Under the pieces are notes generated by a model, which saw only the letters and a list, made by a program, of their open reading frames with translations, did not search any database and was not told the DNA's origin. A program made the translations under genes and the position numbers. Shown here piece after piece: positions 9,447-39,900 of a DNA stretch of 64,000 nucleotides. This DNA is from Macrostomum hystrix (Eukaryota; Animalia; Platyhelminthes), in the NCBI GenBank assembly GCA_950097015.1, contig CATNEN010000007.1, positions 6,634,001 to 6,698,000 of the forward strand. The letters are read 5' to 3'. The first letter of the stretch is position 1. Each line of letters begins with the position of its first letter.

Positions 9447-11055
9447 TCAATTGCCTATGTCCAACAGTGCGCTGAGATCGTCAGAGTCTGGCGACGCCGC
9501 CGACGCAAGACCCGGCATCAGCGGAGTGTCCGAGAAGACGCCGGACTCGCTGGAGGGAGCGTCAGGACTGTCACAGAGAAGCAGCGCGTCTAGCTGGCTC
9601 AGCGTCGACTGGTCGAATAGCAGGTCACCGATGCCGGCTAGGAGGTCGCCGCCATCAGCACTGGAGGGCTCGGCAGCGACAGGAGGCCAGTCGACGACAA
9701 CATCGGCGTCTGGAAAGACTGCCGAGTCGGCGTTATTGTCGAGGGTGTCAACGACGGAGGCGGAGGCCAGCTGCCGGCCATCCAGGCCTGACACTTGCGC
9801 CGACTGGCCAGCGTCAACTGAAGACGGCGCCGGAGCCTGTCTGCCGCCGCGCAAGCCACCGATGAGCGGCAGGAGACGCCGCTGCTGTTGCTGGGGCTGG
9901 TGCTGATTGTGCCGCTGTGCGCAGCTGGGCGAGCCAACTGCAGCGCGAGCGCCAGCGTCATGAGCAGGCGCGCCAGACCCCGACCCTGCTGCTGAGGGTT
10001 CGCCACAGGCTCTGCTGTCCTGTCTGCCGGGGTCAAGCGCGCGCCGCCCAGAGCTGAAACGCCCTGGCCGCAGCCGCCCTCCAGCTGCACAAGCAGGTGA
10101 TTCAGCCTGCTGCCCAGCTTCTCAAGCTTCTCCTTAAGCTCAGAGTTTTCGCAGCGCAAGTAGCGATTCTCAACCTCGAGACGCTGCAGCGCCGACTCCA
10201 TCTTCTCCATTTTCTGTTTCTTCCGATCGCGCGCCTGCTGAGCCGCGATGCGATTCATCACTTTCCTGCAGAGGAATTTCAGTTTATGTTATAAATACGA
10301 CTGGCAGCTAATTTTCGCAACTGACTAGTAACAGTAAGCTACATACAATTTAATTATTAAAAAATTAAAGAAGTGTGATTGTAGAAAGAAACAATCTCTA
10401 AAATAAATATTCGGTTGGACAGAACCTACCGTCTAGTGAGCTTCTCGTCCGCTGTCAAGTGGTTGAGCCGAGCCCGCTTCCGGCCGTAGATAGACGAGCC
10501 TAGCAGATCGTCGTCATCATCAAATTCATCGAAGGACAACGCAGAATAAGTTGATGGATGATCCAGGGGGGCCTTCTGGAGTACCAGATTCTCCGAATCG
10601 GTGCGAATCTTTGAGTCAGTCCCGGCCATAATCGACGAAGCAGATGTCGACGTCGATAGAGTCGGCGATAAGGCTGTCGTAGCCGCCGACGAAGCAGTCG
10701 CCAGCGTCGGGCCGAGGACGATGCGTGCCGGCAGGGCGTCCTCCGTGTCGAGCAGACGCGGCTCTTGCATCATTTTGCGCTTGCGAAAATGCTGCTGGGA
10801 GCTGTCAGCCGGGCTAATGATCTTGGTGCCACCACCGACAAAGCAGGCAGACGGCGGAGGCGTTGCCGATTCGGAGATGTCGTCGAAATCCAGCGACACT
10901 CCGTTCCGCTTGTAGAGCGACTGCTGCTGCTGCTGCTGGGCCAAAGCAAGTTTGCCGCTGCCGCCGGGTACCTCAACCAGGCACACCTGTGAGCCAGTGA
11001 TGCCAGCCTTCTGCAGCAGTGCGTAAACCACTTTCGACGACGCGTTGATGGTCAT
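9447..11055 (-). CDS. xbp1: X-box binding protein 1 (bZIP). Exons 11055-10430 and 10265-9447. Unspliced form ends at 9638 (~417 aa); IRE1-spliced form ends at 9447 (~473 aa).
   Basis: The spliced bZIP RKRARLNHLTADEKLTRRKVMNRIAAQQARDRKK matches the XBP1 basic region. The GT-AG intron 10266-10429 is phase 2. A 23-nt non-canonical intron shifts the frame into the acidic C-terminal ORF. Confidence 0.95.
9992..10014 (-). other. IRE1-cleaved unconventional 23-nt intron of xbp1
   Basis: mRNA sense ACAGG-A-CAG^CAGA-G-CCTGT and ACCCT-CAG^CAGC-AGGGT form two stem-loops with CNG^CNG loops. The excised piece CAGAGCCTGTGGCGAACCCTCAG is 23 nt. Confidence 0.93.
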
Positions 11056-11283
11056 CTTAGTGCAGCTGTTACTAGTAGATGATCCTAACGGTAAGTTGAA
11101 ATTGTTTGATCAGCGATGTCAGCTTGATGATAAAATCACTAGGACACTGAGGTGGGGTAATTGTCTAACCCATTACAGAGCCATGCGGAAAAGATTTTAT
11201 AGGATGGCAAAAGCCCGGGGTATCGTCGAAAGTGTGCCTTACAGTGGTATCGAAAAACCTCAGGAAAACCCTAACAGAAACTT

Positions 11284-11347: not shown

Positions 11348-12444
11348 ACCAGGACAGAGCGACAAAAACGGGCTGGCTGTGCACATGGCGCCAGAACTGA
11401 ATCAATACTGCAGCGTCACCCAACCTACCCTTTCCTTTTGGGCACGCGGGAGTCCTAGAATGTACAAATAGAACAAAGTCATGCGAAAAGCGCGTGATTC
11501 TGTACAGTTCACCCCTTCAAATACTACCCGCCTCGTCCTAAACCTCTCACCCCCCTTTTGCTATTTCTGCCAGCGTGGAACTGACGAAATAAGGCAACCC
11601 ACTTCAACCCCTCCAGCGTGGAATGGGGTGGGTTGAACAGGAAAATGCTGCTGCTTCTAAGCCTAGGCGAGTCGTAAATAGCAGCTGTTTACAGAGCAAG
11701 TTGCCAAAATAGAAACCAGAAGAGACAGAGAAAGAGTCGGGGTGAGAGCGAAAGACCACACACACAGTCCAAAAAAGCCTCACCCAAGCTAGAAAATGGG
11801 CCTAAGTCCCGAACCCGTAGAAGCGTTTTCCGCACGGCATGACTAGGCAAAATGAGAGCACTCTATTTTACGAGCATAGCTATTGGGCACTTCCGGGAGC
11901 CGTGTCTTGCTATAACAGTCTGTAAAGAAAGCGTAGCTGGATCGATATTACAGTAGTTTTGAAATTTAATTCAATAGTTATTAATACTCGGCTGCAAACT
12001 TGCTTAGCCAAAATGAAACAGAATATAATTATTAGCTCATTTGTTTTATTAAACTGAAGTTTACAAGCAATTAAAATGAGTAATGCGAGACACGTGTGTC
12101 AACGCAACGCAAATCAACACACATTAGCTAAAAACATCAGCTGAAACAGTGGAAAAAATATTATTAGTAGTACTGATAGTGAATATAAATAAGTGCGGAT
12201 TGCAGTTTGCAGTCATTGAATGATTAATCAATGAAATGGCAAAATCAAACAGTCTATGAAGACGGAAATCCTATATTGTCTGAATTCCAGTTTGCAAAAA
12301 ATGATATAATCGCTGAGTTGTAAAAAAACATACATTTATTTTCAAATGAACACGTGGGGAATAGGAGAAAACTATAGATATAGAAAATTGAAATCAATGA
12401 CTGCCTTTGAATTGGCTGTAGTAACTACAGCCGATAAAAGTAGG

Positions 12445-12915
12445 AGACAGTGTGGGAAGGAGAGAGGTAGGGTAGACAGTGTGGGAAGGAGAGAGGTAGG
12501 GAAGACAGTGAGGGAAGGAGAGAGGTAGGGTAGACAGTGAGGGAAGGAGAGAGGTAGGGTAGACAGTGAGGGAAGGAGAGAGGTAGGGTAGACAGTGAGG
12601 GAAGGAGAGAGGTAGGGAAGACAGTGAGGGAAGGAGAGAGGTAGGGTAGACAGTGAGGGAAGGAGAGAGGTAGGGTAGACAGTGAGGGAAGGAGAGAGGT
12701 AGGGTAGACAGTGAGGGAAGGAGAGAGGTAGGGAAGACAGTGAGGGAAGGAGAGAGGTAGGGTAGACAGTGAGGGGAGGAGAGAGGTAGGGTAGACAGTG
12801 AGGGAAGGAGAGAGGTAGGGTAGACAGTGAGGGAAGGAGAGAGGTAGGGAAGACAGTGAGGGAAGGAGAGAGGTAGGGTAGACAGTGAGGGGAGGAGAGA
12901 AGTAGGGTAGACAGT
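12445..12915. repeat. 29-bp purine-rich minisatellite (GACAGTGAGGGAAGGAGAGAGGTAGGGTA)n, ~16 copies
   Basis: Directly visible tandem units. Confidence 0.97.
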
Positions 12916-13625
12916 AAGGGGGGATATATATAGGCCTAGACATAAGAGAAGGAAAGCGCCAGCAAAATGAGAATGGCAGATGTAAGCGGTATGCCTAGCA
13001 AATGGTCATAGGGAAGGCGAGAGAAGAACCTTAAGCAAACGAATGGGAAATGCTCAACTTCCTCAGGCTTACATAAGTCGGCAACTTTCATTCATAAGAC
13101 GAGCACTCAAATTGAGATAAAATGAGGGCTTCTTAAACGAAGGCCACCATAAAAAGGGAAGTCTTGCAAAAACAAACACTGTGAACTGTCGTCACAAATA
13201 CCGGAAAACAGCATAGAAACATAAAGACAGTTAAGCTGTAGTATGCTGAGGGCAAACAAAGGAAATAGACTAATAAAGTGCAGAACACTACTGCTAAGAT
13301 CGGGGAGTCCCAGCTAGTCATTTTGCAATGGGATCAGAACTCCGTATTCTCAAGATCTTAGGAAAAACGGATCAGAAGTTCATGCGCACACTAGCTACTT
13401 AGCCATCATTTTATTAGTAGCATAATACTATGCACACAATGGACAACCTGTACACTCGCAAAAAATTTAGCTACGCATTTTTCAGCATTTAGATTTCGTT
13501 AATTAGATCATTAGCTTTCTAGCTCGTAGAAAAAAATAAAAGAAACTAGAAATTATTAGTTAAAAAAGTAGCTTTGAAAAAACAAAAAACAAAGGCTGCC
13601 AACAGAGTATCCGAGAAGGCTAGTA

Positions 13626-16600
13626 TCAAAGAAGGCTCGCAACACCACGACCGCCAGCCTGCGGCTTGTCAGTTCGACAGTAAACCGGTCCTTTGCTAGC
13701 CATGTACTTGTCTATGTAGGACTTGGCCTTTCCCTGCACATTGGCGTTAACCTCCAGGTCCTCAATGTGGCGCGTGTGCTTTAACTCCTTGAGCAGGATG
13801 GCGTGGCTCATTTTCTTGACAAGATATTTGAAGTCCTCCGGGTTGGCGATGCGGCCAGCCGGGCAGGCGGGGTTGCAGTAGCGCCGCAGGTAGTCCTGTA
13901 CGAAAGCTTTCATGGAGGATGAGAAGGCCTCCTTCTGCTGCAGCTCGCGCGAGCCGGCCACCTCACGTCGGCGCTGTTCGCATTTTTCGACGCGCTCTCG
14001 CCGGCGGATTTTCACCGCGTTGCGCGCAATCATCTCCTGAATCTCGTCGTGCGACACCTGATAACGCCAGGCGCTATTGTAGTCGAAGACAGCCTCACAG
14101 GCGGCGTCAGCGGCTGCGGCCGAAGTTAACGACGAAGCGGCCGCGTGCTCTTCTGGCACGGCGTCCCATGGATATGTCGGTTCCCAGTAGTGTTCGCTGC
14201 CCTCGAGAGCGCCGGGCCGGTCCCGCCACACCGTCCGCCTAGTGCCAAGGTGGTAAAAGTACACGCGCCCATCAGGGTCTCGAGCGGAGCGCCACTGCGG
14301 AGGCAGGCCGCCAGATGAGGCTGTGCTGGCTGTCGCTCCCGAAAATGCGTCAGATGCGCCTGAATTCCAGTTTGAATGCAAATATTTTGGATTTAGATCG
14401 TACAAAAAGATACGAAAATGTGCGAATGACACTACTCGTTAGTTTGTTTGTCCTCGAGGAGGATAACACTGTCGATTACTCCGCAGTACATTTTCAATAT
14501 TAATTTTCGCTCGAATCGACTCACCAGTATCAGCGCGCTGCGTGACAGCCAAGAGCAGGCGGTGCACAATAGGATCAGCCGCAGCAGCCGCTGCCAGATC
14601 CTCCTGGGTGACGCAGCTAGCGATGGCGGCTGATCGGCGCATTCGCTTGGCTTCGCTTTCGCCCCCGCTTTCGCCGCTGCTGCAACCGCCCCGCAGCAGC
14701 ATAGCTTCGAGCACGCGGCACAGTACGGCGTGAGCCCGGCCAGCGGAGCCGGATTCGGCGGCGGCCTGCAGTTGGCGCCTGTCCGCCTCTGCCATGATGG
14801 CGTAGGCCTCGAACAGGCGGTCAAACTCTGCGGCGGCGGCGTAGCTGTCCGCTGTCGGCTGCTTCTCGAATGTGGCCGAAGACGTCGTCGAAACTGTGCC
14901 AGAAACTCGAGCTGAAGCATCAGACGATGGCAACGCCACAGAGGCAAGCGTTGTTGATTCCTTCAAAGTCTCGTTTGGCAGGTGCTCCCAGCGGGCCAAC
15001 AACTCGGCAGCAAGACGACAGACTGGATCCGAGCCGCCCTGCCGCGTCTCAGTTGTCTTGGATAGTCGGCGAAGCAGTTCAAGTAGGCCGCCGACGACGA
15101 CACTCGAAGCTTTGGCCAGCTGGTCCGCCGAGGCCACAGGAACGCGGGCCATTGCGCCCAGAGCCGCCAGAGCCAGCGGTCTGGCATCTGTATCGGTATA
15201 ATCCCCATTCCGCTCTGTTGTTGCCAGACAGGCGGTCGCCAGTTCGAGTCCGCGATGTCTACGAAGTTTCAGAAGCAATTCTTCGGCCCCAGCGTCGATA
15301 TTCGCTAGCAATTGGAGCAGCCGCGTCTTGGCATGACCCAGAAGGCTGCGCTCGTGTAGCAGGACCTTATTGGAAAGAAAAAGTGAAGGATGAAATAGAA
15401 GCAACGAAGATTCGTTGTTTGGTCTGAGTTCGAAGTGGGATATATACTGGGACAGCTGAATGATAAACTGCGGATATAAGAAATTATAGGAGTTATAGAA
15501 CCTAGCCCAGTTGGGCAACATGCACAGCCAGTGGCACAATAGCAGCTTGTGAGCAAGGCTGCGTACAGTCTGTGTAGCACTCACCCACCCATTTGGTTTG
15601 GTTGTGATAATAGTCTTAGTTGGGAGTCAAACCAATAGGAATAATCCAACTCACCCTAAGCACGCCCACAATTTGCGCTGGCTGCGTGACAGCCTCTATA
15701 TTAAGCGCTGTCGAATCTTTGCCTAAACTTTCGCCAGCCTCCGCAGCTGGACGACCGCAGCAGCCGCAGCGAGGCGGTGTCTGCTTACCGTCCAGCTGAG
15801 CAGCGAACGCCAGCTGGCAACAGGCGATGGTCACCTCGTCGCCTCTGGCGATGCCGCGCCTGGCAAACAGGCCCAACCGGCGCTCGCCGCCGACGATCCA
15901 GACCTGAGCCTCGGCATTCGGCTCGACTACTCCAGCGCCGGCGCAGCAGCTGACAAATCTGGCTGCGTTGCCTTTCGACGAGGTGTCAATCGCCAGCTCG
16001 CCCAGGGGAGCAAAGTGCAGCCGCTTTCCGGCCGACTCGTATTGGACCTGGCGACGGAGAAATTCACTAGAGCCGACTAGTTCACCAACATACTCGATGA
16101 GAAAGTCGCCAGAGTCAATAGCAGCTGTGGCGCGAAGGCCCCAGCCACGCTCCGGGCCCAGATAGAACGGCTCCAGGGGTAGCGGCGAATTGACCGCCGC
16201 GTTGAAGTGCCGATTTGTGCACATCTCAGCGCAGGGGCAGCAATGGTTGTCGCACTCGATGTGTAGGACGCGATTCACGCACTCGGAGCCGCAGGCTTCA
16301 GCGCCCCGCGCCGCCTGGTCGGGTGTTGGCACGCTGCAATCGCAGGGCCAACTGGAAGCTGGCTCGGTGGCTAGTGACGACTTGGCCGTTGCCTGCCGAA
16401 TATTCCGTAGGATTGGCTCGTAGCTGGGTGGCGACATGCCCGGCGGCGCGGCTGGTTTAAGCGGCACTTCAGCTGCGGATGCAGCGGCCGCCCGCTCGGC
16501 AGCTTTGGCCGCAGCGGACGAATCCAACGCGTCATCGAGTGGCTCCTCGGGCTCAGCAACGTCGGAGGACAGACAGCCAGCTAGAAGTGACTGTCGATCC

Positions 16601-19600
16601 TGTTCGTCCAGTTCCACCTCGTTTACGCTACGATCGCTGGCGCCTCCGCCGCCATCGCCTCGGTCATCGAGAATTCGCGAATTCGATGATGCAACTGACA
16701 TGTCGCTGCTGCAGCCACCGCCACCACGAGCACCGCCGCTCGTTGCAGACATCGCGACAGGCGCCGGCAGACCAGGCGGTGTTGTCGGTGCAGCATTGGA
16801 AACTGCGGAAGCCACGGCCGATGCCGGGCCACGCAGGCGAGACAACTCCCGTTGCTGCATGGCCACCTGGCTCTGCATCTGCTTGGTAATTTTGGTCAGC
16901 GCTCCGAAGAAGTCCGTCAGCTGTTTCAGCGCTGCGTTGGCGTCTGCGGCGCCGCCAGTTTTAGAAGCAAAACTGCTACCGATGTTGGCGACACTGCCGC
17001 CAACTGCCGCAGCAGCGGCTGTGGCTACGGCTAACGGCGAGGTAGTCGACGGCAGCTGCTTCGGCGGGTCAAGCCGGGCCGGGATCGCCTTTGACTCCTG
17101 AGGTGGGTAACAGTTTGGGATTGCTTGCTGGATGAATGACGGTGGTTAGCGAGCGGGAATTCAGTCATTGATGGGGAGGCCATCATCATCATCCTCATTA
17201 TCATCATCATTATCTGACATCAAGAAGTCAGCATTATGTGTCGTTAAGCGCGCAAGAGCTGGGCGCCAACCACTGTCAAGGTCAGCGGGGCGACTGTTGG
17301 CGCATGCTTGTTGCTCATCCAGATTGGCTATTTTAGGCTTTTTCTATTATGCTGCAAAAATTGTGCGGATTCGGCGACGCGGGATAATTCAGGATTGACA
17401 GTAGACAATTGAGGATTAGAATGCTCTTGCACTGCGTCGCGGAGACTAGGAAACTAATCTTCCTGATCACTAAACATTGGCACTCGCAATTCAACACTCG
17501 ACTCAATAAAGGTTAACCCAAAACTACCAAATAGGCATCCAGTTTTTTGGTGCCTGGATGCCTGTTAGCTACTAAAATGTGCAAAAGCAACACAGACTGA
17601 GACTAGCCTAGTCTGTGTCTAGGCTTAAAAATACTATCCCAGATCCCTAATACCGGCCATCGGAGAACCACAGATGAGGTTCGACTACGTGAAGTTGGCA
17701 GCCCCTCTCTATACCGTGCAGTCTCCAAGCATTTAACCGATAACGAAAGAATCAAAGAGTGGAAGCAAATTCAAAACTCGGCAACGAAGTTAGCTTATCG
17801 AATCATTCGACGATGATCAAAAATGGGAAAAGCGGGGAAGGTGGTGCGGAAGGGGATTATAGAAACAGCTAGCGGGGTGACGACAATTAAGTATTTTTTA
17901 GCCAATAGCAGACAGGTCAGAGCAGAATGGTGCGAATGTTTGGACTAAAGCGGGTGGGCAATAAAAAACGCAAGAAACACCGAAGCATCGGTTTAGTGAT
18001 GAAAGAGAAACCGTTTCAGGGAGCATGCAGCTGGGCAAGGTCAATCAGTTAGACGTGCAGAGCGGAATGTCGCCGGTCACCCACCTGACGTGTGGCGTGT
18101 AGGCGATCCCCGGATGCGTTAGCATCTCCGCCGCTCCTCCTTCGGCTACTGCCGCTGTCATCGGCGTTGTCGCCTCCACCGCTGCTGCGCTGTCGCTGAA
18201 TCATGGCGTCGACTTGACGCAGCCGCTCTTTCACTTTTTGCCGCTCCAGATGTCGTCGCTCCCGTTCCTCAGCTTTGGAGGCAACCGCCACCACGGCGGG
18301 TTCAGAGGTGCCACCGCCGGATAAATTAGAGGCCCGCTGCTGATGCTGCCGCTGCCTTCTTGATCGGGAGCCAGATTTGCTACGACGCTGACGACTGCGG
18401 CTACGTTGGCGCTGATTCGAGCAGTGCCCGCCCCCGCCTCCAACAGCACCACCGCCGCCACCCCCAGCAGCAGCCGAATCATCCTCAGAGTCGTCGCGGC
18501 TTCGATGCCGCCTATGCCGCTTGGAGCGGTCTCGCCGGCTATTCGAGCCGCTGCTTCCAGAGCGGCTGCGGCTGCCGTCTCCGTCGCGACGATGCCGACG
18601 TCGAGATCGGCTTTTGTTCCCGTGACGGCTTCGACTGCCTTCGCGTCGGCGACTCCCACTGCCGCCCCGACGCTTTTGTCGGTTTTTTTCGTCCGCAGTA
18701 TCATCATGCGCTACACCCTCGTCTTCCTTTTCCTTGCTTCTCTCTCGCGATTGGTGGCGCTGGCGCGACTGAGTCGGCGTTCGAGAACGACGGCGGCGCT
18801 CCTCCTCCCGACGCCGGCCACTGACAGCCTGATCGTCATTCGATCGCTGTTCTTTTGAGGCTGGTGGCGAGGAACGGCGAGGTTCCGATGCGTCTCGAAT
18901 CAAAGTGGCAGCTTGGTACGAAGGTGTGTGACTCCTGCGCTGCTTCTTGTGCATCTCTGCCTCTTGCTGACTTGCAACAATCGGCGCTGCTTCAGAAGGC
19001 GGCTGCAAGGCAAGTTTTGATGAGGCGTCCTTGGGCTCCACTTTTTCACTGCCATCATCGACTACCTCGCCGCCTTCATCGTCATCAAACTCAGCTAATG
19101 TGGACTTTAAATGCCCCTTAGAGGGTACTTTACGGCGAACAGCAACGGGACCGCTTCCTTGGGCAGCTGCAGTAGAATCTCCACCAGAAAAGCTCATGTG
19201 TACCTTCTGGCGTACTTCTGGCAATTCATGTGGAGCGGAGCTCATGGCTGTATCGTCAGCATTGTCTGCATCCCCTAGGCCCATCTCATTGTCCGTGAGC
19301 TGCTGCGGCTCCTCATCTGACAGGGTGGCGTAGGAACTGGCACGAGACTCCTTGCGACCGGAGCCTTTGACTCCAGAATTCCCACCCTCGCCATCCCCAT
19401 TATTTTTTGAAGTCGCTTCTGTCGGTGACCGACGACGCTGGCTGCTGCGGCGCCTATGAGGCGACGCTGTGGGTGACGACGCCCGATGATGTCTACGCGA
19501 GGACGACGACGATCTACGATGCCTGTGACGATGTCGCCGGCTGTCCCGATCGGGCGAGCGCGAGCCGCGCTTTCTTTTCCGATGCCGATGGCGGTGCGAG

Positions 19601-21155
19601 TGTGAGCCGCTGGATCGACGCCGTCGCCGGCCGCCACCATCATCGTCTAGAGCGGCATAGGTGTCCTCGCGCTGCTGCATCTGTAACAACTCGCGCTCGC
19701 GCGAAGATCGCAACCGATCAGCCTCTTGACGAGTCATCAGGGCGCCTGGAATCGGCGGCAGCGTGGCCGGGTTCAAGTGCGACACGTCCGGGAGTGGTGG
19801 CGCCTCGGCCGCCTGCTTGGCTGCCAGCAGCAGGTTTGGTCGATTGTGCTTCGGCTTTGTCGGATTCAGCGGAATACCGCCGCGACCGCTCAGTACGCTC
19901 AGACCCGCTAGGCCAGTCAGGCCGGTTAGGCCGCCACCGACATTGCCCAGACCACCTAGGGTTCCAAGACCACTGACGCTGGATAAACCGGTGAGGCCTC
20001 CTAAGCTACCGAAGCTGCTCGGAACACCCACACTGCTGAGACTCGACAGGCCCCCGATGGTACTACTCATGAGACTAGTAATACTCATGGTGCCCACGCC
20101 CAACTCTGTGCCAGTCAGGCCGCTGCTCCTAGCACTGCCACCACCGCTGTTGATGCGAGCCCGACTGCCAGAACCGCTGATAGCACCGCTTCCGACTGCG
20201 GATGATGTCGGGGCGACACCAGACGAAGAGACAATCGAAGCAATCGGAGCACCGGAGCTTGAAGAGGCTGATTCGAATGGTTGAATCGGAGTTTTCTCTA
20301 TATCGGCTGCGTTTGGTAAGAACAGTTCGGAACGGCGGCCAAAGGCAGCAGCACTGTTGCCACCGCCAGCTCCACTGGGAGCGGCACCGCTGTTGCTTCC
20401 ACCGCTATCAACTTCGGGCATCTTCTTTCGTTTAGCTGGCAGGACGCCGGTTTGCAGTGTCAGCGGCTTCCGTTTGCCTGGTCCGGCCGGTGCTTGCACT
20501 GGCATCGGCTGCCTTCGTTGTTGCTGCTGCGTTGGCGATGTGGCATTCTGCTGACCTGGCTGCTGCTGTTGCTGCATGGAGGCTACCACGATTGCCGACT
20601 GTTGAGGCTGTTGCGAAGAAGTCGCAGCGGATCCACTCTTGGCGTAGCTGATCATGCCAAATGCACTTTTCAATGCGAATTTCACTGGGCCGCTACTCGC
20701 CGAAAGATGAGCAGTCAGGTCCGGCGGCGGCGGTGCCGCTGTATGCTCCATGGCGGCATGCTGCGAAGCCTGCGGATATCCCGGTGGTGGCAGTGGAAGC
20801 TGGTCCGGCAAGGGAATATCAGCCACATTTGAAAAATTGCTATCATCACCATTGTCGCTGCCAGATTTTAGCGGCGGCGACTTGCGTCGAACAGGCGGCG
20901 GTGGCGGCGGCGGCGGAGGTGGAGGCGACGTTGGTGGAGGTGGTGGAGGGGGCGGCGGTGGTGGCGGCGGGGGCGGTGGAGGTGGCGGAGGCGGTGGCGC
21001 CGTTCTCACCGCTCGCACCGGCATTGGAATTTCATCCAGCTCACTGAAACGTAAGTAGACGGAATAAAACTACATCCTAGACAAAAAAGAGTATGCAAAT
21101 GGTAGAATCGGACTTCTTAAACTTACTCAGTCGGAAATGCGGGATCGTACTCCAT
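13626..21155 (-). CDS. setd2: SETD2/Set2-like protein (AWS, SET, helical region, WW, SRI), ~2001 aa. Exons 21155-21127, 21043-18085, 17097-15655, 15365-14525, 14359-13626. SET active site degenerate.
   Basis: AWS: CGSECVNRVLHIEC...CPCAEMCTNRHF. SET: GWGLRA...FLIEYVGE. WW: LPPQWRSARDPDGRVYFYH. SRI: GRIANPEDFKYLVKKMSHAILLKE...YIDKYM. N-terminus MEYDPAFPT, then poly-Pro and RS-rich regions. All four GT-AG junctions are phase-consistent (6006 nt in total). Confidence 0.88.
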
Positions 21156-22056
21156 AACAGATTCCACTGACAGCAAACAGGGCCAACACAGGTACAGCTG
21201 GTTTGCGCAATGTCAACAATAAATTTAGTCCAAGTAGAAGATACTCGCGAGAGAACAGAAGCTCTCCGAAAGGCTTCTGTGGATCACCACATGGCCAAGC
21301 GGCTCTGCTGTAACAAATAAGCGACATGAATAAAAAAACGGAAGTATATTATCTAATTTCATGCACTATGTACGCTCGTACAACAATATTTGCAACAATA
21401 TTTTTATTATTATGCCTGATTGATTAACTTTCATATCTAATATGAAGGAGATAGCAACAGGGCTGGGTGGGACAATGTGATCAAGGTTGAGGGGAAAGAT
21501 AGGATCAAGGTTGGGTGGGAAGATGGGATCAGGGCTCAGAGGGAAGATGAGCTTAAAGCTGGTTGGGAAAAATGGGATCAGGGTTGGCTGGGATGATAGG
21601 ATCAAAGAATGGGAGGGAAGATGGGATCAGGGAATGGGTGGGATAATGGATCGGGGATGGCGGGGTTTGGGATTGAAGTTACCGCAAAACTCAAATAAAT
21701 CAATAATATAATCCCGCAAAAAAACAAAAGAAAACATGAATGAATTTGGCACAAAACTGTCGCACAAAAACGGCCTGCAATCCAAGTGCTTTGTACTTTT
21801 TTCTGCATCCTTCAATGCGCTAGATATTGGATACAATAAATAGAATAGCAACGCTCGTACTTCAGCAAGTCAAAACAAGAACAGGTGGCCGATTGAAAGC
21901 CACATGTCTTCAGATTTGGAGGTCCTTGATAATATATGCGCATCAAATTGAATATCTCAGCAACAAATCAGTCGTAAGTAGTGCAAATGCAATTATTTTA
22001 CTTAGTACAGCAATGCGAAACTGTAGATAATCTATCTGGCTAAGCAGATGGGAAAA

Positions 22057-25000
22057 TCACTTGGATTCTCCAAACACAACGCAGTCGCTGCGCAGTCGCT
22101 TCCGCCGTCTCGCAAACAGCTGGCGCGGACCCTCAAGCGCGTCAGCCAGTGACACAGGCGGCGGCTCCTGAACGGCATGGACGGCGACAGCAGCAGACGG
22201 CAGCTGCGCTGGCGGTGTAGTGCCCTTGAGCGGAACCTTGGTGCATGCATCCTGGATCCGTGTTGACTGCTGCATCGACGGTGAGGTTGGCGGCGGTGGC
22301 TCTTCTGGAAGCAACAGCGGCCGTAGCAGAGGCTCGCAGAGACTGAGGCCGTCCAGCGAGGCCGACAGCGGCTCATCGACACCGTCGACGACTGCGGCCA
22401 AAGCGGTAGCAGCTGTCGCCGCCGCGTCCAAAGTTGTTCGACGACGCTTCTTTCGCTTCTTTGATGACGAAGGTGCGCCGGCACCGCAGGCATTGGCGCC
22501 TGTACCGTCGTTGGCTTCGCCGTCAGACAGCGCGTCGATTGCGGCATTGAATTCGTCTAGATGATAACGACGGCATAACAGGGTGAAGCGGCTACGCAGC
22601 TCAGCCGGCAGGGCTGGCCACGGGTGCAGGGAAGAGCGGAGCACCAGGTGAAAATGCATTCCGGCTAGGCTGGCGGCGTCCTTGCTGCCAACGCCGAGGA
22701 GCTCCCGGTGCCGGTGGACGGCGATGCGGACGACCGCCCGAACGCAGGCGTGGAACAAACTGGCCTCGTCTGAGTTGAGAGTGCCAGCACGCTTGTCGTA
22801 TCTGGATGGGTTTGACGCGGGGGCGGAGGAGATGAAGTAAGACAAGATAGGATTGTGGATACGTCGTAAACTGGTCAATTTGTAAGTGTAATATGAGATC
22901 CTGCAGTTCAACAGGGATCTTCTGCCATATAAACCTCACGACAGCGGCCTTGAATGACAGGGAGGAGATGAGACAGGATAGGAGACAGGCGAGATTATAG
23001 GGAGGTAGGTGCTTTTAGGAGCAATAGATACTTCGAGATTTTAGAGGCAATGAAAAAGACCTTCGGATTGCCTAGGCCCAAGTTGCCAGCTCACACTGTC
23101 ACAATAAAAAAAGCGAGGCTAAATCACCTGGCCGCCATTAGCCTGGCCCGGTGCACCAGCATGAGCAGCACAGTATTGAGCAGGTGCGAATGCACAAAAG
23201 CGCATCGGGCGCACAGGTCGCCCAGCAGCGCCAGGCAGCGCAGTCGCAAATTCTCGCCAAGCCTGGAGTCAATAGCGCGCTTCCACAGATAATCAAAGAA
23301 GCCGTGAGCGATCCTGTCGCTGACAGAGCAGGCCAGAGCCAGAAGCAGGTGAATGCGCGACGGTCCGGCAAGGTGGGTGAGCTCTCTATCGAACACAGTC
23401 AGCAGGTCTTTGTAAATGGCGCGAGTGCGCGGCCAATCGGCCGGGTCGAGCTCGGCGCGCGCGTAGCAGAGCAGCGGGTGCAGGCAGGCATTCAGCTTTA
23501 GCCGCCTGTCACAGGAGCGGCAAGTGCCGGCTGCGGTGGCCTGCTGGAGAATGATGTGCAGGTCCAGCGTCAGCTTCCACCAGCAGTCGTCTGGTCGGCG
23601 GCCCACAAGGCGGACAGCGGCGGTGCTGGCAGCTTCGACCGAAGATTGAGTACAAGTGCAGATGGCGGAGGTGCCTGGCAAAGTGATTGACGTCTCTATA
23701 GTTTGTAAAGCGATTTGGCTCTATAAAAATGGTACCGATTTGAAGCCTTAGAGTTAGGCTTAACTGTAGATCCACATTTACGGTCAGTACATGTGACTGT
23801 ACACAGCCGCTGCTTTTGCGTGGCACTTCTTAAGGCTGCGAAAACCTTTTCAGTCCATAGACTGGATAGGGGCCGCCACAACAAATAAGAATGGAAGGCC
23901 ACGTTTAAATGTAAATCGGGGTGTATTAAATTAATAAGATGATTCATTGACACAACACAATAATATTAAGATAAATTCAATAAGATCACGTTTTGTTGGC
24001 TTTCTACTGATTAAAAAACATATATTTTAATTTTGGGGAGGATAACTACAGGCCAGAGTATGAGCTTTCGATTTCTGCCCGAGAAGTTGGACGTTCGAAT
24101 CGCAGTGCAATCGAATCAATTTTTGTCCCTTGCTCCAGTTGACTCAGCAAAATTGTTACCGGCATTTGCTGGGGCTGGGTGGGGGTAGCGGCCCCAGTCC
24201 ATGGACTGAACAACTGTCTGCATGCAGCTCGGCGCAATAGCTGCGACTGTGCCACTGACTGTACATCTGACCCAGACATTCCGGACGAAAAGTGACACAG
24301 TAACTATTTTTCAGACAGACCGAACTCACCAGCCTCATCCGCTAGACGCTCCAGCTTGGCCACAGTTCTGCAGGCTACAAATAGGAGGCGAATTCGCAGA
24401 CCGGCGGGTCCAGACAGGTAGGTAGCTGCGGCGCGCAGCATGTTGAGCAGGTAGCAGGCCAGCTGGCGAGTTGGCCGGCCCCACAGGCAGCGCTGCTCGG
24501 CCAAGTCGCAGATGACGTCGGGCGCTGAGGCGGGGAAGGCGGAGGCGAGGGCCTCCAGCAATCGGTGCGCTAAGCTGAACTGCAGCCTAAAATGGGGAAA
24601 TAAATGGAATTAGTTGCAGCTTATCTAGTAATGGAAAATACTTGGGGAGGGGCAATGCCAATCCCCGATCAGAAATCTGCAATATGCTAATCTCGCTTAT
24701 CAGAAATCTCTGATAACTATTTTACAGCTTAACGACTACATATTTTCCTGAGCTAAGATTAGCACTCTCGACCTCTCCTCGGTTAGAAGTCCAAAGCAAT
24801 AACCACTGAGATATGATCTGTTTCATTATTAGAGGCCATGAAAACAGAAGGAATGGATATTATAGGGTATTTTTTTACAAAAATCCTATACAAAAAATAG
24901 TGAATTTATTATTCAAACCAACTTATCAACTTCGAAGTCATCAGGCTGGGCCGCGTCATCAGGTAGTGCCGGGTAGAACCAGCCAACCGCAGTCTCTATA

Positions 25001-28000
25001 GCCAGATGGCGCAGGTCCGGATGCCGGCTGGCCAGCAGTAGACTAAGGCGCCGATATCTGTCTAGGCCGGTGGCGTCCAGCAGGCGAAATGGCGGCCGAT
25101 TGGCCAGCAGCAGGCGGGCCAGGTGACTGTGCCGCTCAGGGTCGATGCGGCCAGCCAGGGCTAGCAGGTAGCGCACAACAGCTCCAGCTTTCTCAGCAGT
25201 TGCTAGGCTACAGGCTGACAGGGCGCCATTTTGAAGCTCGTGACAGGCCAGATTGTAGTGCTTGGCGCTGGCCGGGTCAGGACCGAGGGCGCGGGAAAGG
25301 GCGCAGCACAATGGACCTGCTGCTTTGAAGGCTTCTAGTTGATGTCAGTTGCAGGGGGGGTGAAATGCATTATATAATTTCATTAGAATGATGATATGAT
25401 TATTCTATGACATAATTTTTGCAGTGATAAACATGTTCATATGTTTTGTAGCAAGGCATTAGTATACTCATGGTGGAATATTGAGCATACAGGATGTGTC
25501 TCAGCAGCTAGTGCTTGAAATTTGAAAATTATCTGTTGTAGCAATCAGCACAGATTTTATGCCTCTGTTATAGCTTATCTGCATAATGTAAAAACTTTTC
25601 TAATTATATTATCCACTGAGGCTAGATTGTTTTACTCTTATATTTTTTGTGATTAGGAAAGCATGGCATAGCTACCAGCAACTTCTTATAACTAGACAAG
25701 ACATTCACACATTCACACCAAAATAATTTATATTATAATATTTTTTGTTTGCTAGACTTGTAATATAGATCTGTAACAGCAAAAAGATGGTTAATATCTT
25801 TTACATTTTGCAGGAAAGTTTCTCATTATGGTATAATTATAGTTTCCTACTTGTAAGTATTTGTTGTAAAAATTGAGACTTGCAGCCATTCTACAAATGA
25901 ATACCACTATAAAAATACACATTTAAATTAAATTAACCAACATTCCTATATATAAAATCTATCAAAATGATTTTTTCGAGACATAGTTGAAGACTAACTA
26001 AATTCTGAGAAATTTCTAACACTTGGCAACCACTTTTTATTTGCACCTGCACATATATCTTTTTCCAGACAAGTCAGGAAAATATAACTTTTTTGTTTGC
26101 TAATGTCATTTACTGAGATCAGAGAACTATTAGCTACTTTTGCTAGACTAAATTAATGACAAACATATTTTTAAATAGGTACAACAAAACTTATGATCTC
26201 AAGAATGGCATGAGATAAAATTAAATAAAAACCAATTAACTTAAGAATAATAAATTTACTTATTGTCTAATTGAATCAAAGTTTGTATACAATACTCAGA
26301 ATTATGTTCTTTTCATTCTTTATAAAACATACGGAGACGAATACTAAGAAGGATTCCAGAGAGAGAAATAGAAAGTATTGCTGTACACTTGAGATCATTG
26401 GTAACGCTCTTCGGAAAGCCTATACTCAGAAATACATACATGCGATAAATTAATCGGCCAGAATAACTAAATATGCTACCTTAGACTAACTAAAGACGAT
26501 ATTCAAGAATAACTAAATACGCTACCAAGAAATTCTTTTGGATATATAGATTACGTTCTCAGAAATTAATTCTAAGAAACATTAACAGTAAAGAATACAA
26601 CAACATTGTGAGAGTAAAAGTTAGAATAATAATTAGCACTAGAACAACTTTGGTGGTATTCAGTAGAATATTAAAATTATATAAAATAACCCTAGGACAA
26701 CTTTGACAGCAGCAGTGAGATTAAATTAGCCCTACAACATAATCATTTGGGCCAACTATTAGAAATGAAAAGAAAGCCATGAGCTAATTTCAATGCTACC
26801 TTAGGGGCATGGAAATGCTACATCCTTAATAAAAAGTTGTGACTTATTGATTAGCATAGCAGGCCATATTCTATATATCTATTTAGAGTTACAATTCTCT
26901 AATGAGTCTAGTAAAGGAAGTTGTACTAATTGTGACATGGTTTTCTTAAACCTCAGTTTAGTATTTGAATTTGTGTTTATATTTTGCATTTAGTTAAGCC
27001 AACCAGGTTTGTTGTTATTGTCTTAAAATATTTTCTAATAACTCTGATTTCTAAGTAATATATAAAAGAATTAAAATGCCTTTCTTTGTGTCAAGATTTT
27101 GTTTATGTGAGTTAGCCTTAGCTAGCTATCTAGTTCCTGTCCATCTCTGATTAAAAATATTCAATGAGTTATTTTGTCCTCTTTGCCACATACCCCTATT
27201 AGCCCCATAGTCCGGATCATGTCGTTTACGCCGGAGATCTCCAGCGTAAATCTGGTTTGGGATCGGAGGCTGGCGTAAGTGCTTGGCGTAAGTATAGGCC
27301 AAAATGTGCCTTGGCGTAAGTGCTTGGCGTAAGTACATGGCATAAATCAAGTGGCATAAATGTTAGCACAAACGAGATCATTCATGATCAAATGTATCAC
27401 TATAGAACATAACACATTTGCGTTAATTATGATGTTAAGGAGCAGCATTAAAACAAAGTTCATTAAAATATTGCAGTTCGTATAAATGAGATAGCAGAAT
27501 ATCTATTGTAGGATAGCAAACGTTTTTTTAGCTTTAAGATGCTTACTTTGATACCTGATTCAGAATTTGCAACTTGTGAGATTTTTAAACAGTTTGCAAC
27601 TTCTTGAGGGCAGCAAGCAAGGAGGCCGATAAAGAGACATGGATTAACAAGAATTGTGAAGGACCTTTTTTGGGTGGCGTAAGTCAGAGGGACCTTTTTT
27701 TGGTTGGCGTAAGTCTGGCGTAAGTGCCAAAAAATGTTGGATTTTTCCTCCGGCGTAAGTCCAGCATGATCTGGACTATGGTATTAGCCTACTAGAATAT
27801 TTAAATTATTACCTATAGGCCCTAGCTAGTACCATCAAAATAAAAAAAGAAAAATAGCTATGTATGACACCAACACAGCTACCTGGCTTTATTTGACTGT
27901 ACTAGTGTCACTTAGCCAATCTACTATATAAATTGTCACATAATGAAAAGTTCCACAATTAATTTAAAGTACAACAAATGCTAAGTTGTATACTTACAAG

Positions 28001-32375: not shown

Positions 32376-35045
32376 TTCTATCAATTGATTTCTATCAATT
32401 CTGAGCTTAGATATCTATCGATTCTGAGCCTAGATACGAGCGTATCAATCAACTCTGAGCCTAGGTGTGGACTGTGAACATGGCGGCGGTACTGGTTGCA
32501 CAGGCCGATGAACTGGCGGATCTCTTTGACTGACCTCGGCTCCTTCCACTGCTGAATCGCCTCCAGCTTCTCTTTGCTTGGCTGAGCTCCCTCCTTTGAA
32601 TAGCGCGTGCCGAGGAAGGTCACTTCAGGCACCGCGATCTTGCACTTGGAGCCTCTCAGTGTCAGCCCGGCTGCTCTGACTCGCTGAAGTGCCTCTCGCA
32701 GTTGCAGCAAATGCTCCTTCCTGGTCTTAGAGAAGCACAGGCTGTCATCGAAAAACGTGAAGACGAAGTCACAGCCATTGAAAACTTTGGACATGAGCAT
32801 GCAGAACGTGCTTGGGCCACCTGACAGGCCTTGAGGCATTCTCTTAAATTGGTATAGCGGCATCCCTGGTCCAGGGCTAAAGGCTGTCTTCTGTCTGTCT
32901 TCTTCAGCCAGAGGGATCTGGAAGTAGCCTCCATTGAGATCCAGCACTGAGAACACCGTGCTGCCCGCGATTCGATCTCGTGCCTCCTCCATTAGCGGAA
33001 TTCCCTGCGCCGACCGAATCGTCTTCTTGTTGAGCTCTCTGTAGTCGATGGTCAGCCGCAGACTGCCTTCCTTCTTGGTCACGTACACCGGTGGAGCCAC
33101 GTACGGACTCTCGCTCAGTTCGATCACGTCGTTCTCCAGCAGCTCCCGAATCAGTAGCTCCGCCTTCTCCCGGTAGTGCACGGGCATTCGGCGCGGTGGG
33201 ACACGAACTGGCACCTCATCAGCGAGAACAATTCGATGCTGCTGGAGATGCGTAAGTCCCGGCTTCTTCTTGAACACGTCCTTGAACTCCATCAGCAGTC
33301 GCTGAACTTCGGGATCATCGGTGGTTGGCAGCTCGAAATCCACGCAGCTGAACTCGGGCACGAGAGCATCCTCGATGTCAACTGGGTCGTCCGTCTCACT
33401 CTGGAACCTTGCACTGCAGATACGACCAGGAGCTGCAGGGTTGGCCTTGAAGTTCAGCTGCAAACGGTGCTTGCCGATGAAGTCGACACCGACGATGACA
33501 GTACAAATCAAATCGGACACCACGTAGAACAAATGCAGCGCTGTCACTTTCCTGACTGTGAGCGTCAACTCGATCTGCCACTCGATGCTGATTGGCTGCT
33601 TGTTCACCGAGTGCAGCTGCACTCCGGCTGAAGTTGCGCGGCTGAGCTGCGATTTCGTCAGAATGCTGGAGTCGACCAGTGAGCACTGGCTGCCGGTGTC
33701 TAAAAGCTCCTTCACACTTCTGCCATCAAGCTTGCACTCACACTGCGAAAGTCGGTCGGACGCTGCATCCACTGAAGACCCCGCCGACAGCGAGCGCTGG
33801 CCCCGGAGCCGGCGCTGGTGAACCCGCAGTTACTGCTGGCCGAGGTGGTGGGCCCGCCCACCCCAGCCTCTGGCGTTTCCCGACTGCTGCCGCCGGCTGT
33901 ATCAGTCCTTGGCGATGTGGCCGGTTTTGTGGTAGTTGTAGCAGACGATATCAGATCTCGGTCGGTGTGCCCTTGCTGTACTGCTGCTTCTCACTCCACA
34001 GGCTACCAGCTGCTCCAGCTGGGTGCTCAATGTGCTCACCGAGACCTGCAGACTCTGCACTGTCTCTGCACTGTGTCCCGCAGCTCCTGAACTTCGCTGG
34101 ACTGGCTCTGCCGAGGCTGTACCGCAGCTGCTTGCGTTGCTGCTGGATTGTGCTGCATCAGTAGCTGAGCCTTTTCAAGCGCTTGCACTGAGGTCTTGAT
34201 GTTGGTGTCTGCTCGAATCTGCCAGCCCACGGAGTCTGGCAGGCCACAGATGAACTGATGAAACAGCAGGGCTTCTCGAGCATCCACATCGACCACAGCA
34301 GAGCTCTGCAGCAGTTTCTTCAGCTCGTAAAGGTACATGCGTGGAGTCTCACTTGCCAAAATTCTCCTCGCCTTGAACGCTTCCATGACGGCGAAGTGCT
34401 CTCGGTCCGGGTGGAACGCATTCTCCATTTTCCACAAACGCTTTCTCAGCCATTGTGGAAACCACGCTCTGCTACCACTTGTGTACTAAGGCAGAGAGAC
34501 TGCGACTTAGTGTTGACGAAGTTTTACTGCGATTTATTTGTTGACTCACGAGTTAAATAGCAATCAGTGCCAAGGTGTAAAAGTGAGAGAGAAAGGCATG
34601 CACGCGGTTGATGTACATTAGACACCCTGAGAAGTGAGCGCATATGTACATTGCCACACACTACATAGGTATCTATCAATACTGAATTTAAATATCTATC
34701 GATTCTGAGCCTAGATATCTATCAATTCTGAGTTTAAAGATCTATCGATTCTGAGCCTAGATTTCTATCGATCCTGAGCATAGACATCTATCAATGTTGA
34801 GCCTAGATAACTATCAATGCTGAGCCTTGATAACTATTAATGCTGAGCTTAGATATCTAAAAAAATGTTGAGCCTAAAAATGTATCGATTCTGACCCTAG
34901 GAATCTATAAAATCTGAGCCTTGATATTATTCAATTCTGAGCTTAGATATCTATCGATTCTGAGCCTAGATATCTATCCCTTCTGAGCCTAGATATCTAT
35001 CCCTTCTGAGCCTAGATTTCTATCGATTCTGAGCCTTGATTTGTA
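32375..35045. repeat. 23-bp minisatellite (CTGAGCCTAGATATCTATCGATT)n, interrupted by the Gypsy at 32466-34665
   Basis: Units at 32375-32465 and 34666-35045. Confidence 0.92.
32466..34665 (-). mobile_element. Gypsy LTR retrotransposon, 5' half (LTR, gag, protease, RT)
   Basis: LTR TGTAGT...TACACA (34665-34480); PBS TGGTAGCAGAG (initiator tRNA-Met); degenerate knuckle CYNYHKTGHIAKD*; protease LLDTGS; RT LRLTIDYRELN...FFDDSLCFS; flanked by TAGG(T) duplication. Confidence 0.93.
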
Positions 35046-36956: not shown

Positions 36957-39900
36957 ACAATGATCCCCCAGTTGACAATGATCCCCCAGTTGACAATGAT
37001 CCCCTAGTTGACAATGATCCCCCAGTTGACAATGATCCCCCAGTTGACAATGATCCCCCAGTTGACAATGATTCCCCAGTTGACAATGATCCCCTAATTG
37101 ATGATGATCAACCAGTTGACAATGATCCCCCAGTTGACAATGATCCCCTAATTGATGATGATCCCCCAGTTGACAATGATCCCCCAGTTGACAATGATTC
37201 CCCAGTTGACAATGAACCCCCATTTGACAATGATCCCCAAATTTATGATGATGATCCCCAGTTGACAATGATCCCCCAGTTGACTATGATCCCCAAGTTG
37301 ACAATGATCCCCCAGTTGACAATGATTCCCCAGTTGACAATGATCCCCTAATTGATGATGATCAACCAGTTGACAATGATCCCCCAGTTGACAATGATCC
37401 CCTAATTGATGATGATCCCCCAGTTGACAATGATCCCCCAGTTGACAATGATTCCCCAGTTGACAATGAACCCCCATTTGACAATGATCCCCAAATTTAT
37501 GATGATGATCCCCAGTTGACAATGATCCCCCAGTTGACAATGATCCCCAAGTTGACAACGATCCCCCAGTTGACAATGATCCCCCAGTTGACAATGATTC
37601 CCCAGTTGACAATGAACCCCCAGTTGACAATGATCCCCCAGTTGACAATGAACCCCCAGTTGACAATGATCCCCCAGTTGATGATGATCCTCCAGTTGAT
37701 GATGATCACCCAGTTGACAATGATCCCCCAGTTGACAAAGATCCCCCAGTTGACAAAGATCCCCTAGTTGACAATGATCCCCCAGTTGACAATGAACCCC
37801 CAGTTGACAATGATCCCTCAGTTGACAATGATTCCCCAGTTGATGATGATCCTCCAGTTGACAATGATCCCCAGTTGACAATGATCCCCCAGTGGACAAT
37901 GATCCCCCAGTTGATGATGATCCTCCAGTTGACAATGATCCCAAGTTGACAATGATCCCCCGGTTGATGATGATCCCCCAGTTGACAATGATCCCCCAGT
38001 TGACAAAGATCCCCCAGTTGACAAAGATCCCCTAGTTGACAATGATCCCCCAGTTGACAATGAACCCCCAGTTGACAATGATCCCTCAGTTGACAATGAT
38101 TCCCCAGTTGATGATGATCCTCCAGTTGACAATGATCCCCAGTTGACAATGATCCCCCAGTTGACAATGATCCCCCAGTTGATGATGATCCTCCAGTTGA
38201 CAATGATCCCAAGTTGACAATGATCCCCCAGTTGATGATGATCCCCCAGTTGACAATGATCCCCCAGTTGACAAAGATCCCCCAGTTGACAAAGATCCCC
38301 TAGTTGACAATGAACCCCCAGTTGACAATGATCCCTCAGTTGACAATGATTCCCCAGTTGATGATGATCCTCCAGTTGACAATGATCCCCAGTTGACAAT
38401 GATCCCCCAGTTGACAATGATCCCCCAGTTGATGATGATCCTCCAGTTGACAATGATCCCAAGTTGACAATGATCCCCCAGTTGATGATGATCCCCCAGT
38501 TGACAATGATCCCCCAGTTGACAAAGATCCCCCAGTTGACAAAGATCCCCCAGTTGACAATGATCCCCCAGTCGACAATGATCCCCCAGTTGACAATGAT
38601 CCCCCAGTTGACAATGATCCCCCCAGTTGACAATGATCCCCCAGTTGACAATGATCCCCCAGTTGACAATGATCCCCCAGTTGACAATGATCCCCCAGTT
38701 GACAATGAACCCCCAGTTGACAATGATCCCCCAGTTGATGATGATCCTCCAGTTGACAATGATCCCCAGTTGACAATGATTCCCCAGTTGACAATGAACC
38801 CCCAGTTGATGATGATCCTCCAGTTGACAATGATCCCCAGTTGACAATGATCCCCCAGTTGACAATGATCCCCCAGTTCATGATGACTCCCAATTGATGA
38901 TGATCCCCAGTTGATTATGCTCCCCAGTTGACAATGATCCCCCAGTTGATGATGATCACCCAGTTGACAATGATTCCCCAGTTGACAATGATCCCCTAAT
39001 TGATGATGATCACCCAGTTGACAATGATCACCCAGTTGATGATGACTCCCCATTGATGATGATCCCCAGTTGACAATGATCCCCAGTTGACAATGATCCC
39101 CCAGTTGACAATGATTCCCCAGTTGACAATGAACCCCCAGTTGACAATGATCCCCAAATTTATGATGATGATCCCCCGTTGACAATGATCCCCCAGTTGA
39201 CAATGATCCCCCAGTTGACAATAATCCCCCAGTTGATAATGATCCCCCAGTTGACAATGATCCCCCAGTTGACAATGATCCCCCAGTTGACAATGATTCC
39301 CCAGTTGACAATGAACCCCCAGTTGACAATGATCCCCCAGTTGACAATGATCCCCCAGTTGACAATGATCCCCCAGTTGACAATGAACCTCCAATTGACA
39401 ACGATCCCCCAGTTGACAATGATCCCCCAGTTGACATTGATCCCCTAGTTTACAATGATCCCCCAGTTCACAATGATCCCCCAGTTCACAATGATCCCCC
39501 AGTTGATGATGATCACCCAGTTGACAATTATCTCCCAGTTGACTATGATCCCCCATTGATGATGATCCCCAGTTGACAATGTTACCCCAGTTTACCATTA
39601 CCCCCTAGTTGATAATGAACCCCCAGTTGACAATGATCCCCCAGTTGACAATGATCCCCCAGTTGACAATGATTCCCCAGTTGACAATGAACCCCCAGTT
39701 GACAATGATCCCCCAGTTGACAATGATCTCCCAGTTGACCATGATCCCCCATTTGATGATGACTCCCAAATGATGATGATCCCCATTTGACAATGATCCC
39801 CAGTTGACCGTGATCCCCCATTTGATGATGATTCCCCAGTTGACAATTATCCCCCAGTTGACAATGATCCCCCAGTTGACAATGATCCTCCAGTTGACAA

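Follow-up and report, generated by a model that had tools for sequence, protein, structure and literature searches.

SETD2 is regarded as the writer of trimethylated lysine 36 of histone H3 (H3K36me3) on transcribed genes, and the relative parts of its catalytic and non-catalytic roles are an open question that has been studied with point mutants (PMC9167812, PMC13187324, PMC10557632). Human SETD2 and the SETD2 proteins of parasitic flatworms (e.g. Schistosoma rodhaini CAH8675669.1) share a long disordered N-terminus followed by the order AWS, SET, post-SET, AID, WW and SRI, and the lineage is preserved in parasitic helminths according to a paper that does not mention Macrostomum (PMC10915263). 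We analysed a stretch of 64,000 nucleotides (the window) from the flatworm Macrostomum hystrix (GenBank assembly GCA_950097015.1, contig CATNEN010000007.1, positions 6,634,001 to 6,698,000), which encodes a protein with this domain order and with a SET domain that has lost residues typical of active SETD2. On balance we favour the view that this is a flatworm SETD2 with a predicted-dead SET domain, likely kept as an adaptor without enzyme activity on elongating RNA polymerase II (Pol II), and that it is probably the only SETD2 of its genus.

Two described systems invite comparison. An engineered mouse SETD2 (R1599H) is likewise full-length and without H3K36me3 activity, yet still works in transcription (PMC13187324). 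That protein is a laboratory point mutant in cells, whereas in Macrostomum the condition is the natural state in at least two species, the equivalent Arg is kept and inactivity is predicted from sequence. The Set3 subfamily (yeast Set3/Set4, fly UpSET, human MLL5/KMT2E and worm SET-24) likewise has the SET fold minus the Asn-His pair and the Tyr, and its SET proteins are inactive in vitro and act through partners (PMC5094779, PMC12886896). This subfamily is separate and ancient and mostly possesses PHD fingers, whereas the loss in Macrostomum appears to be independent and to lie within the Set2 lineage, in a protein with AWS, WW and SRI domains. No PHD finger was found in a Pfam scan of four exon-level frames, and MLL5 is not represented among the best 60 of 92 PDB sequences matched by the SET region, the best matches being SETD2. 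Literature searches, which lacked most subscription papers and supplements, returned no report of a naturally dead SETD2 or of this protein.

The NHS/CxxPN S-adenosylmethionine (SAM)-binding motif, as defined in PMC3178901, is absent and reads RFVSCCAGAGVVEPN, with the Asn-His pair missing and a 5-residue insertion; whether the pair has been replaced (by Ser-Cys) or deleted depends on the alignment. The ELxF/YDY position reads EVTIACC, so that the final Tyr (human Y1666) is Cys. In the lysine pocket Y1579 is present, M1607 is Ala and F1664 is Ile, the last as in other flatworms, and the post-SET cysteines read CxCC in both Macrostomum species, with A or M at the third Cys position. In human SETD2, Y1666 lines the K36 pocket, and C1631 forms a zinc site that is completed by the cysteines of post-SET (PMC4973290, PMC11626819). 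A column census of 158 other SET domains shows how unusual these changes are: the Asn and the final Tyr are present in 100% and the His in 98%. Of 50 columns that are at least 90% conserved, 36 are kept here and 35 in the Macrostomum lignano protein, whereas in 98 of 160 rows all of them are intact; more losses than in the M. hystrix protein occur only in the M. lignano protein and in three rows from distant outgroups. An earlier reading of the window from its letters alone (the sequence-only reading) had listed the altered motifs, and all of them were recovered on the minus strand (ARFVSCCAGAGVVEPN at 15963-15916, EVTIACC at 15837-15817, LHFAP at 16020-16006 and RCGCCGRP at 15771-15748). Loss of the Asn-His pair and the Tyr accompanies a lack of SAM binding and of activity in MLL5 and SET-24 (PMC5094779, PMC12886896); with this precedent, and given that the post-SET cysteines are also altered, it is highly probable that the SET domain is without methyltransferase activity. 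By catalytic criteria the protein would fall outside the class of active H3K36 methyltransferases of the SETD2 type.

The two nearest relatives of this protein are M. lignano proteins that are 57% identical in the SET region. The M. lignano orthologue is represented by BOX15_Mlig017137g2 (PAA52569.1) and BOX15_Mlig028966g3 (PAA59591.1), which have the same losses and the same downstream bZIP neighbour; they differ in being partial models, with a SET domain 60% identical to that of M. hystrix, and are labelled "hypothetical protein" or "Histone-lysine N-methyltransferase" in sources that make no mention of inactivity. In M. lignano the Asn-His pair is also missing (RFVSCSGSAGVEAN), the final Tyr is Cys and the post-SET motif is CxCC; the insertion at the SAM-binding motif amounts to 4-5 residues in the Macrostomum pair. 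The loss is therefore older than the split of the two Macrostomum species. Each species has in addition losses of its own, namely the invariant first Gly of the GWG motif and Y1579 in M. lignano, and M1607 and D1665 in M. hystrix. In contrast, RF[IV]NHSCEPN is found in 31/31 SETD2 entries of parasitic flatworms (a set that includes near-duplicates and one unnamed entry) and ExTIDY in 29/31, the remaining two being partial.

The domains of the two Macrostomum proteins have not diverged evenly. They share 60% of residues in SET, 40% in post-SET and 51-56% in AID, but 74% in the linker upstream, 78% in the AWS core (69% when the preceding stretch is counted in), 77-78% in SRI and 97% in WW; for two exons of the adjacent bZIP gene the values are 84% and 97%. 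In parasitic flatworms the conservation of SET equals or exceeds that of SRI in 45/45 pairs and never falls below 65%, and in a wider set the SET-minus-SRI gap is equally negative in just 12 of 3486 pairs. Alignment thus shows that SET and AID diverge faster than WW and SRI in Macrostomum; for SET this is the opposite of what is seen in other flatworms. Residues 1646-1758 and 1807-1895, which lie around WW, are 70-79% identical between the Macrostomum proteins and have no match in the other sequences compared; these stretches are candidate lineage-specific interaction surfaces.

The gene model and the altered motifs were compared with contigs from public sequencing runs (X1 to X9). Nine such runs contain the stretch, none of them recorded as RNA, and all but X8 were compared; X2-X7 are treated as transcript assemblies because their contigs skip introns and carry spliced-leader (SL) or poly(A) ends. 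X2-X5 come from another study than the possible source run of the assembly. X1, which yielded short unlike pieces only, was left out, and X9 (organism B, a small share) served solely for a single joint and a single loose end. Contigs of X2 and X6 cross the SET region with zero letter differences, and single contigs of X3 and X4 cover 15653-17101 with one difference, R1142P, which lies beyond the SET domain. Exon junctions were taken from joints in these contigs. Joints in X2 and X6 mark the 165-nt and 289-nt introns, and those in X6 and X9 the 83-nt intron. For the 987-nt intron there are joints in X2, X3, X4, X5 and X7, in each case in a 55-letter contig with a shorter side of 25 letters, which is under our bridging threshold; it is further backed by GT-AG ends, by preservation of the frame and by an equal junction in the M. 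lignano protein P0002. The spliced model comprises 6006 nt, that is 2001 amino acids and one stop, with four introns that are all GT-AG. The claim of the sequence-only reading that a frame of about 2001 codons is open holds as to the number of codons, although they are spread over five spliced exons and do not form a single open reading frame (ORF). The same reading had proposed a retained pseudo-methyltransferase, a proposal well supported by the second species, the spliced transcripts, the intact frame and the stronger constraint on WW and SRI than on SET, and had named transcripts with intact NHSC and FDY motifs as one finding that would speak against it; the contigs of two studies instead carry the same altered SET domain. 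What it missed is the probable orthologue status of the gene and the three transcript forms described below.

A complete SETD2/Set2 domain set (AWS, SET, WW and a C-terminal SRI) is present in one spliced frame, with Pfam E-values past all cut-offs (SET 5.6e-13, AWS 7e-9, SRI 4e-16, WW 1.5e-8). Human SETD2 is the closest PDB match both for the SET region (E 7.6e-32) and for the WW-SRI region (E 3.6e-24), and the ESM Atlas assigns the SET region to the SET family, with recognition of exon 4 below threshold. With respect to descent, a FastTree analysis of 304 AWS-SET-AID columns in 85 rows groups the Macrostomum pair with parasitic-flatworm SETD2 and not with NSD or ASH1L (support 0.994), as does IQ-TREE on 46 of those rows (98/96), with a stem of 1.36 changes per site. 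Support independent of the tree comes from the N-terminus, where the start MEYDPAFPTDELDE matches the beginnings of 15/31 flatworm SETD2 entries (MEYDPxxPTDEL) and where the DIPLP, GPVKFALK and TGVLP motifs recur in such entries. On the basis of the tree and these shared motifs, the protein probably belongs to the flatworm SETD2 lineage. It differs from active SETD2 in lacking the Asn-His pair, Y1666, the SPT6-binding motif and the acidic insert of AID, in its post-SET CxCC and in the insertion at the SAM-binding motif, and from other flatworm SETD2 in that its SET domain evolves faster than SRI.

The AID helices between post-SET and WW are present and were aligned by eye with flatworm and other SETD2; exon 4 gave no match of its own for AID in Pfam and no real PDB match. 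The insert within AID is 27-36 residues long in Macrostomum compared with 101-300 in five comparators; in human SETD2 an acidic insert of AID regulates nucleosome binding (PMC12572195). A Y/F-R/K-I/V-P-K/R motif after AID occurs in 80/96 other SRI-bearing homologues and in 26/31 flatworm entries, and in neither Macrostomum protein. It corresponds to human residue 2023 (numbering deduced from the PDB chain, with K2506, R2510 and H2514 as checks), where the SPT6-binding region begins that efficient co-transcriptional methylation requires (PMC12572195), and from this position we infer that it is the 7-residue stretch of that paper. In SRI, the residues critical for binding the C-terminal domain (CTD) of Pol II are V2483, F2505, K2506, R2510 and H2514 (PMC9167812), of which three (F2505, K2506 and H2514) are as in human. 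The good conservation of AWS, WW and SRI that had been claimed is borne out by the Pfam matches and by the AWS cysteines, all of which are kept, but SRI is imperfect at its CTD-binding positions. The parts that serve methylation appear to have been lost and the interaction modules kept.

We searched for an active SETD2 elsewhere in Macrostomum. The window contains no second SETD2, tBLASTn matching just the gene itself. Word-based protein searches with the SET region (14 matches, 460-2000 residues) and with WW-SRI (3 matches, 427-2000 residues) gave, from Macrostomum, solely models of this gene. When the M. lignano protein P0001 was compared by phmmer with every one of 1.84 billion cluster representatives, 3828 matches were obtained, the best after P0001 itself being from a millipede (215 bits), and among the best 150 no Macrostomum SETD2 was found in those named or placed (27 names were looked up). 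A profile built from three active flatworm and two Macrostomum SET regions (7988 candidates scored) recovered many parasitic-flatworm SETD2 and, from M. lignano, just two dead entries among the 120 of 643 matches listed. In a scan of metagenomes the WW-SRI query matched once, over 27 residues of WW. An Ala/Gly-rich protein, P0093, was considered as a Macrostomum paralogue and rejected: it falls near the Macrostomum pair in an SRI-only FastTree (0.92), lacks the flatworm motifs and stands apart from the pair in SET-AID trees. The suggestion in the sequence-only reading that the protein competes with an active H3K36me3 writer is weakened by the four protein searches without an active Macrostomum SETD2 and by the loss of the SPT6-binding motif, which positions SET on the nucleosome.

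The contigs represent three transcript forms, namely a joined form, an N-half form and a C-half form that begins with a spliced leader; they give no proportions of these forms, and contig depth was not used to rank them. The joined form is seen in five runs and in M. lignano P0002. Contigs of X2, X3 and X4 continue past exon 2 and terminate within intron 2 at 17778-17779, and X7 has a 9-letter poly(A)-type loose end at 17770, where the genomic DNA is not A-rich. The SL acceptor of the C-half form lies 418 bases past the N-half 3' end, and its loose ends match the published M. lignano SL sequence (PMC8629364). In the C-half transcript the first in-frame ATG (16878, giving 932 residues) follows 14 upstream ATGs, so this form may be poorly translated. 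Many upstream ATGs in its 5' leader (17146-17351, minus strand) derive from an ATG/GAT repeat at about 17178-17216, and M. lignano P0001 begins with Met at a point where M. hystrix has none. The combination of a 3' end and an SL acceptor in intron 2 (17352-18084) looks like operon-type processing inside one gene; in M. lignano, gene pairs less than 1 kb apart with a trans-spliced second member are classed as operons (PMC8629364). The M. lignano models of this gene bear two different gene numbers. Coordinates are collected in the table.

Table. Features of the SETD2 gene in the window (position 1 is the first letter of the 64,000-nucleotide stretch)
Feature	Position	Strand	Evidence or remark
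SETD2 gene	13626..21155	-	five coding exons, 2001 residues; translated model and introns seen as contig joints
SL acceptor, long and N-half transcripts	21308	-	20-letter loose end in X9, one contig only; matches published M. lignano SL
Exon 1	21127..21155	-	start of MEYDPxxPTDEL motif common to flatworm SETD2 N-termini; 83-nt intron joint in X6, X9
Exon 2	18085..21043	-	Pro-, Gly- and Arg/Ser-rich N-terminal half; DIPLP, GPVKFALK and TGVLP motifs as in flatworm SETD2; no Pfam family match in Pfam scan; C-terminal part of product aligns with M. lignano P0002
Read-through into intron 2	17770..18084	-	stop at 18049, 3' end near 17770; N-half protein of 1007 residues
Internal SL acceptor of C-half transcript	17352	-	24-letter loose end equal to SL 3' end in X2, X3, X4, X5
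Exon 3	15655..17097	-	
AWS zinc-binding domain	16198..16350	-	Pfam PF17907 and column census; every conserved Cys present
SET domain, predicted inactive	15811..16185	-	alignments and SET fold in structure model
Post-SET remnant	15736..15771	-	CxCC in place of CxCx4C
AID helices, spanning intron 3	14973..15720	-	aligned with flatworm and other SETD2; acidic insert shortened to about 36 residues
Exon 4	14525..15365	-	
Place of missing SPT6-binding motif (Y/F-RIPK, human 2023 on)	14961..15005	-	alignment with SETD2 homologues
Exon 5	13626..14359	-	
WW domain	14214..14306	-	Pfam and PDB match; 97% identity to M. lignano
SRI domain (binds phospho-CTD of Pol II in known SETD2)	13674..13946	-	77-78% identity to M. 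lignano

A number of observations weigh against a dead SETD2 that is the sole copy in its genus and works as an adaptor on Pol II. In approximately unbiased (AU) tests, neither a position of the Macrostomum pair with two fungal Set2 (p 0.106) nor one next to NSD (p 0.359) is rejected, the sequence composition of the pair is atypical, and a SET-only tree gives the pair a very long branch amid sequences from outside the flatworms; the tree by itself is therefore no proof of descent. R1625 and all AWS cysteines are retained, as is Y1579 in this species though not in M. lignano, and a SET identity as low as that of the Macrostomum pair is reached by 29 of the 129 pairs in the wider set whose SRI identity is similar. 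Without the SPT6 motif one known anchor to the elongation complex is gone, and in SRI V2483 is replaced by Gln (His in M. lignano) and R2510 by Lys, the latter a conservative change also found in other flatworms. The word-based searches are lossy, covering about 360-2000 residues, and the profile search did not list the insect SETD2 P0003 among 120 of 643 matches. The paralogue searches covered protein sets and depend on M. lignano gene models, with the query gene itself as the sole M. lignano positive control. Given the lossy searches and this dependence on gene models, we rate the proposition that the gene is the only SETD2 of the genus Macrostomum a little above even. Pseudoenzymes usually arise next to an active copy, and it is possible, although we think it clearly the less probable course, that a second, active Macrostomum SETD2 was missed and that the present copy is a duplicate which acts as an adaptor or dampens the writer by occupying the Pol II CTD. 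The long stem branch would suit an old duplicate, and lossy protein searches could have passed one over, but phmmer found no close relative beyond P0001, the SET and WW-SRI searches gave from Macrostomum only models of the same M. lignano gene, the profile search only its two dead entries among the 120 matches listed, and this gene has kept the full ancestral flatworm layout.

Other explanations appear less probable still. Cysteines at the His and Tyr positions together with the post-SET CxCC in both species, and the fact that H1629 adjoins the post-SET zinc in human SETD2 (PMC11626819), might suggest that SET is not idle and has become a rewired zinc site, a binder of nucleosomes or methyl-lysine, or a weak non-canonical enzyme. 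The conserved AWS is compatible with this, as is an AlphaFold2 model based on a 77-sequence alignment in which the SET fold is kept (pLDDT, the predicted local distance difference test, 85; best match SETD2 8q5p, E 1.6e-20, template-modelling score 0.70). However, SET changes faster than the disordered linker, the further active-site losses differ by species, and the model leans on an alignment of mostly active homologues, pLDDT being 53 with 8 sequences; we consider such activity improbable. It is very unlikely that the protein functions off Pol II or in separate halves, with SRI on tubulin tails, WW on proline-rich partners and the N-half as a free Arg/Ser-rich nuclear protein, in a gene that is splitting in two. 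N-half-only and SL-started C-half-only transcripts occur in several runs and the M. lignano models carry two gene numbers; moreover, alpha-tubulin is also bound by human SRI (PMC9167812) and the SETD2 N-terminus acts on the lamina without catalysis (PMC10557632). Against this stand the joined form, found in both species, and the upstream ATGs of the C-half transcript. The idea of an assembly error or a decaying pseudogene could draw on the relaxed constraint on SET and AID, but we give it almost no credence. Independent spliced contigs of two studies equal the SET exon letter for letter, which refutes an assembly error, and a second species with the same losses, 2001 open codons and a WW domain that is 97% identical speak against decay.

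The neighbourhood of the gene is as follows. A gene downstream (9447-11061, minus strand) encodes a bZIP transcription factor by Pfam, which we take to be XBP1-like. The UniRef M. lignano model P0015 fuses this bZIP gene to the SETD2 C-terminus, which points to a conserved neighbourhood and a likely mis-annotation. The upstream gene (22057-25344, minus strand) matches RRN3 (PF05327, E 3e-6); about 750 bases separate the end of one of its frames from the SL acceptor at 21308, and the gene may thus share an operon with SETD2. A tandem repeat occupies 12430-12930, downstream of the SETD2 gene, and a piece of 40-45 bases in intron 3 (15500-15547) is 80-90% like many other contigs and represents a small dispersed repeat. 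Farther away are a reverse-transcriptase ORF (32381-33292, PF00078) and a long repeat-derived ORF (37818-39437).

As regards function, neuronal differentiation is still supported by a mouse SETD2 that lacks catalysis, and once SETD2 is lost Pol II is depleted of PAF1C and further elongation factors (PMC13187324); these two findings make an adaptor on Pol II the likeliest job of the Macrostomum protein, and a scaffold on elongating Pol II is our best inference. SRI would bind the phosphorylated CTD, while factors of elongation or RNA processing would be held at the polymerase by WW together with the N-terminal half, rich in Pro and Arg/Ser; the AWS-SET module likely remains as a spacer, folded and relaxed. 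Gene bodies would in that case carry less H3K36me3, or the mark would be written by an NSD/MES-4-type enzyme that is uncoupled from Pol II; such a source could resemble MES-4, which writes H3K36me3 in C. elegans (PMC6218224).

We see about an even chance that the only SETD2 of the genus has become a pseudoenzyme, which would make Macrostomum an animal lineage without a co-transcriptional H3K36me3 writer, in which the catalytic centre, the SPT6 motif and the AID insert have decayed together while the parts of a Pol II adaptor were kept, its halves being also issued separately by alternative polyadenylation and internal trans-splicing. In a full-length SETD2 that is dead by nature one can see which parts selection has preserved after the loss of catalysis, and because M. 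lignano is a model ready for RNA interference and transgenesis (PMC8629364) the question can be tested directly. The flatworm in question still has DNMT1 and DNMT3 (PMC9246332). Should an active paralogue exist, this protein would still be a pseudoenzyme derived from SETD2, of a type that the literature searches did not bring up; if there is none, it poses the question of whether an animal can dispense with transcription-coupled H3K36me3.

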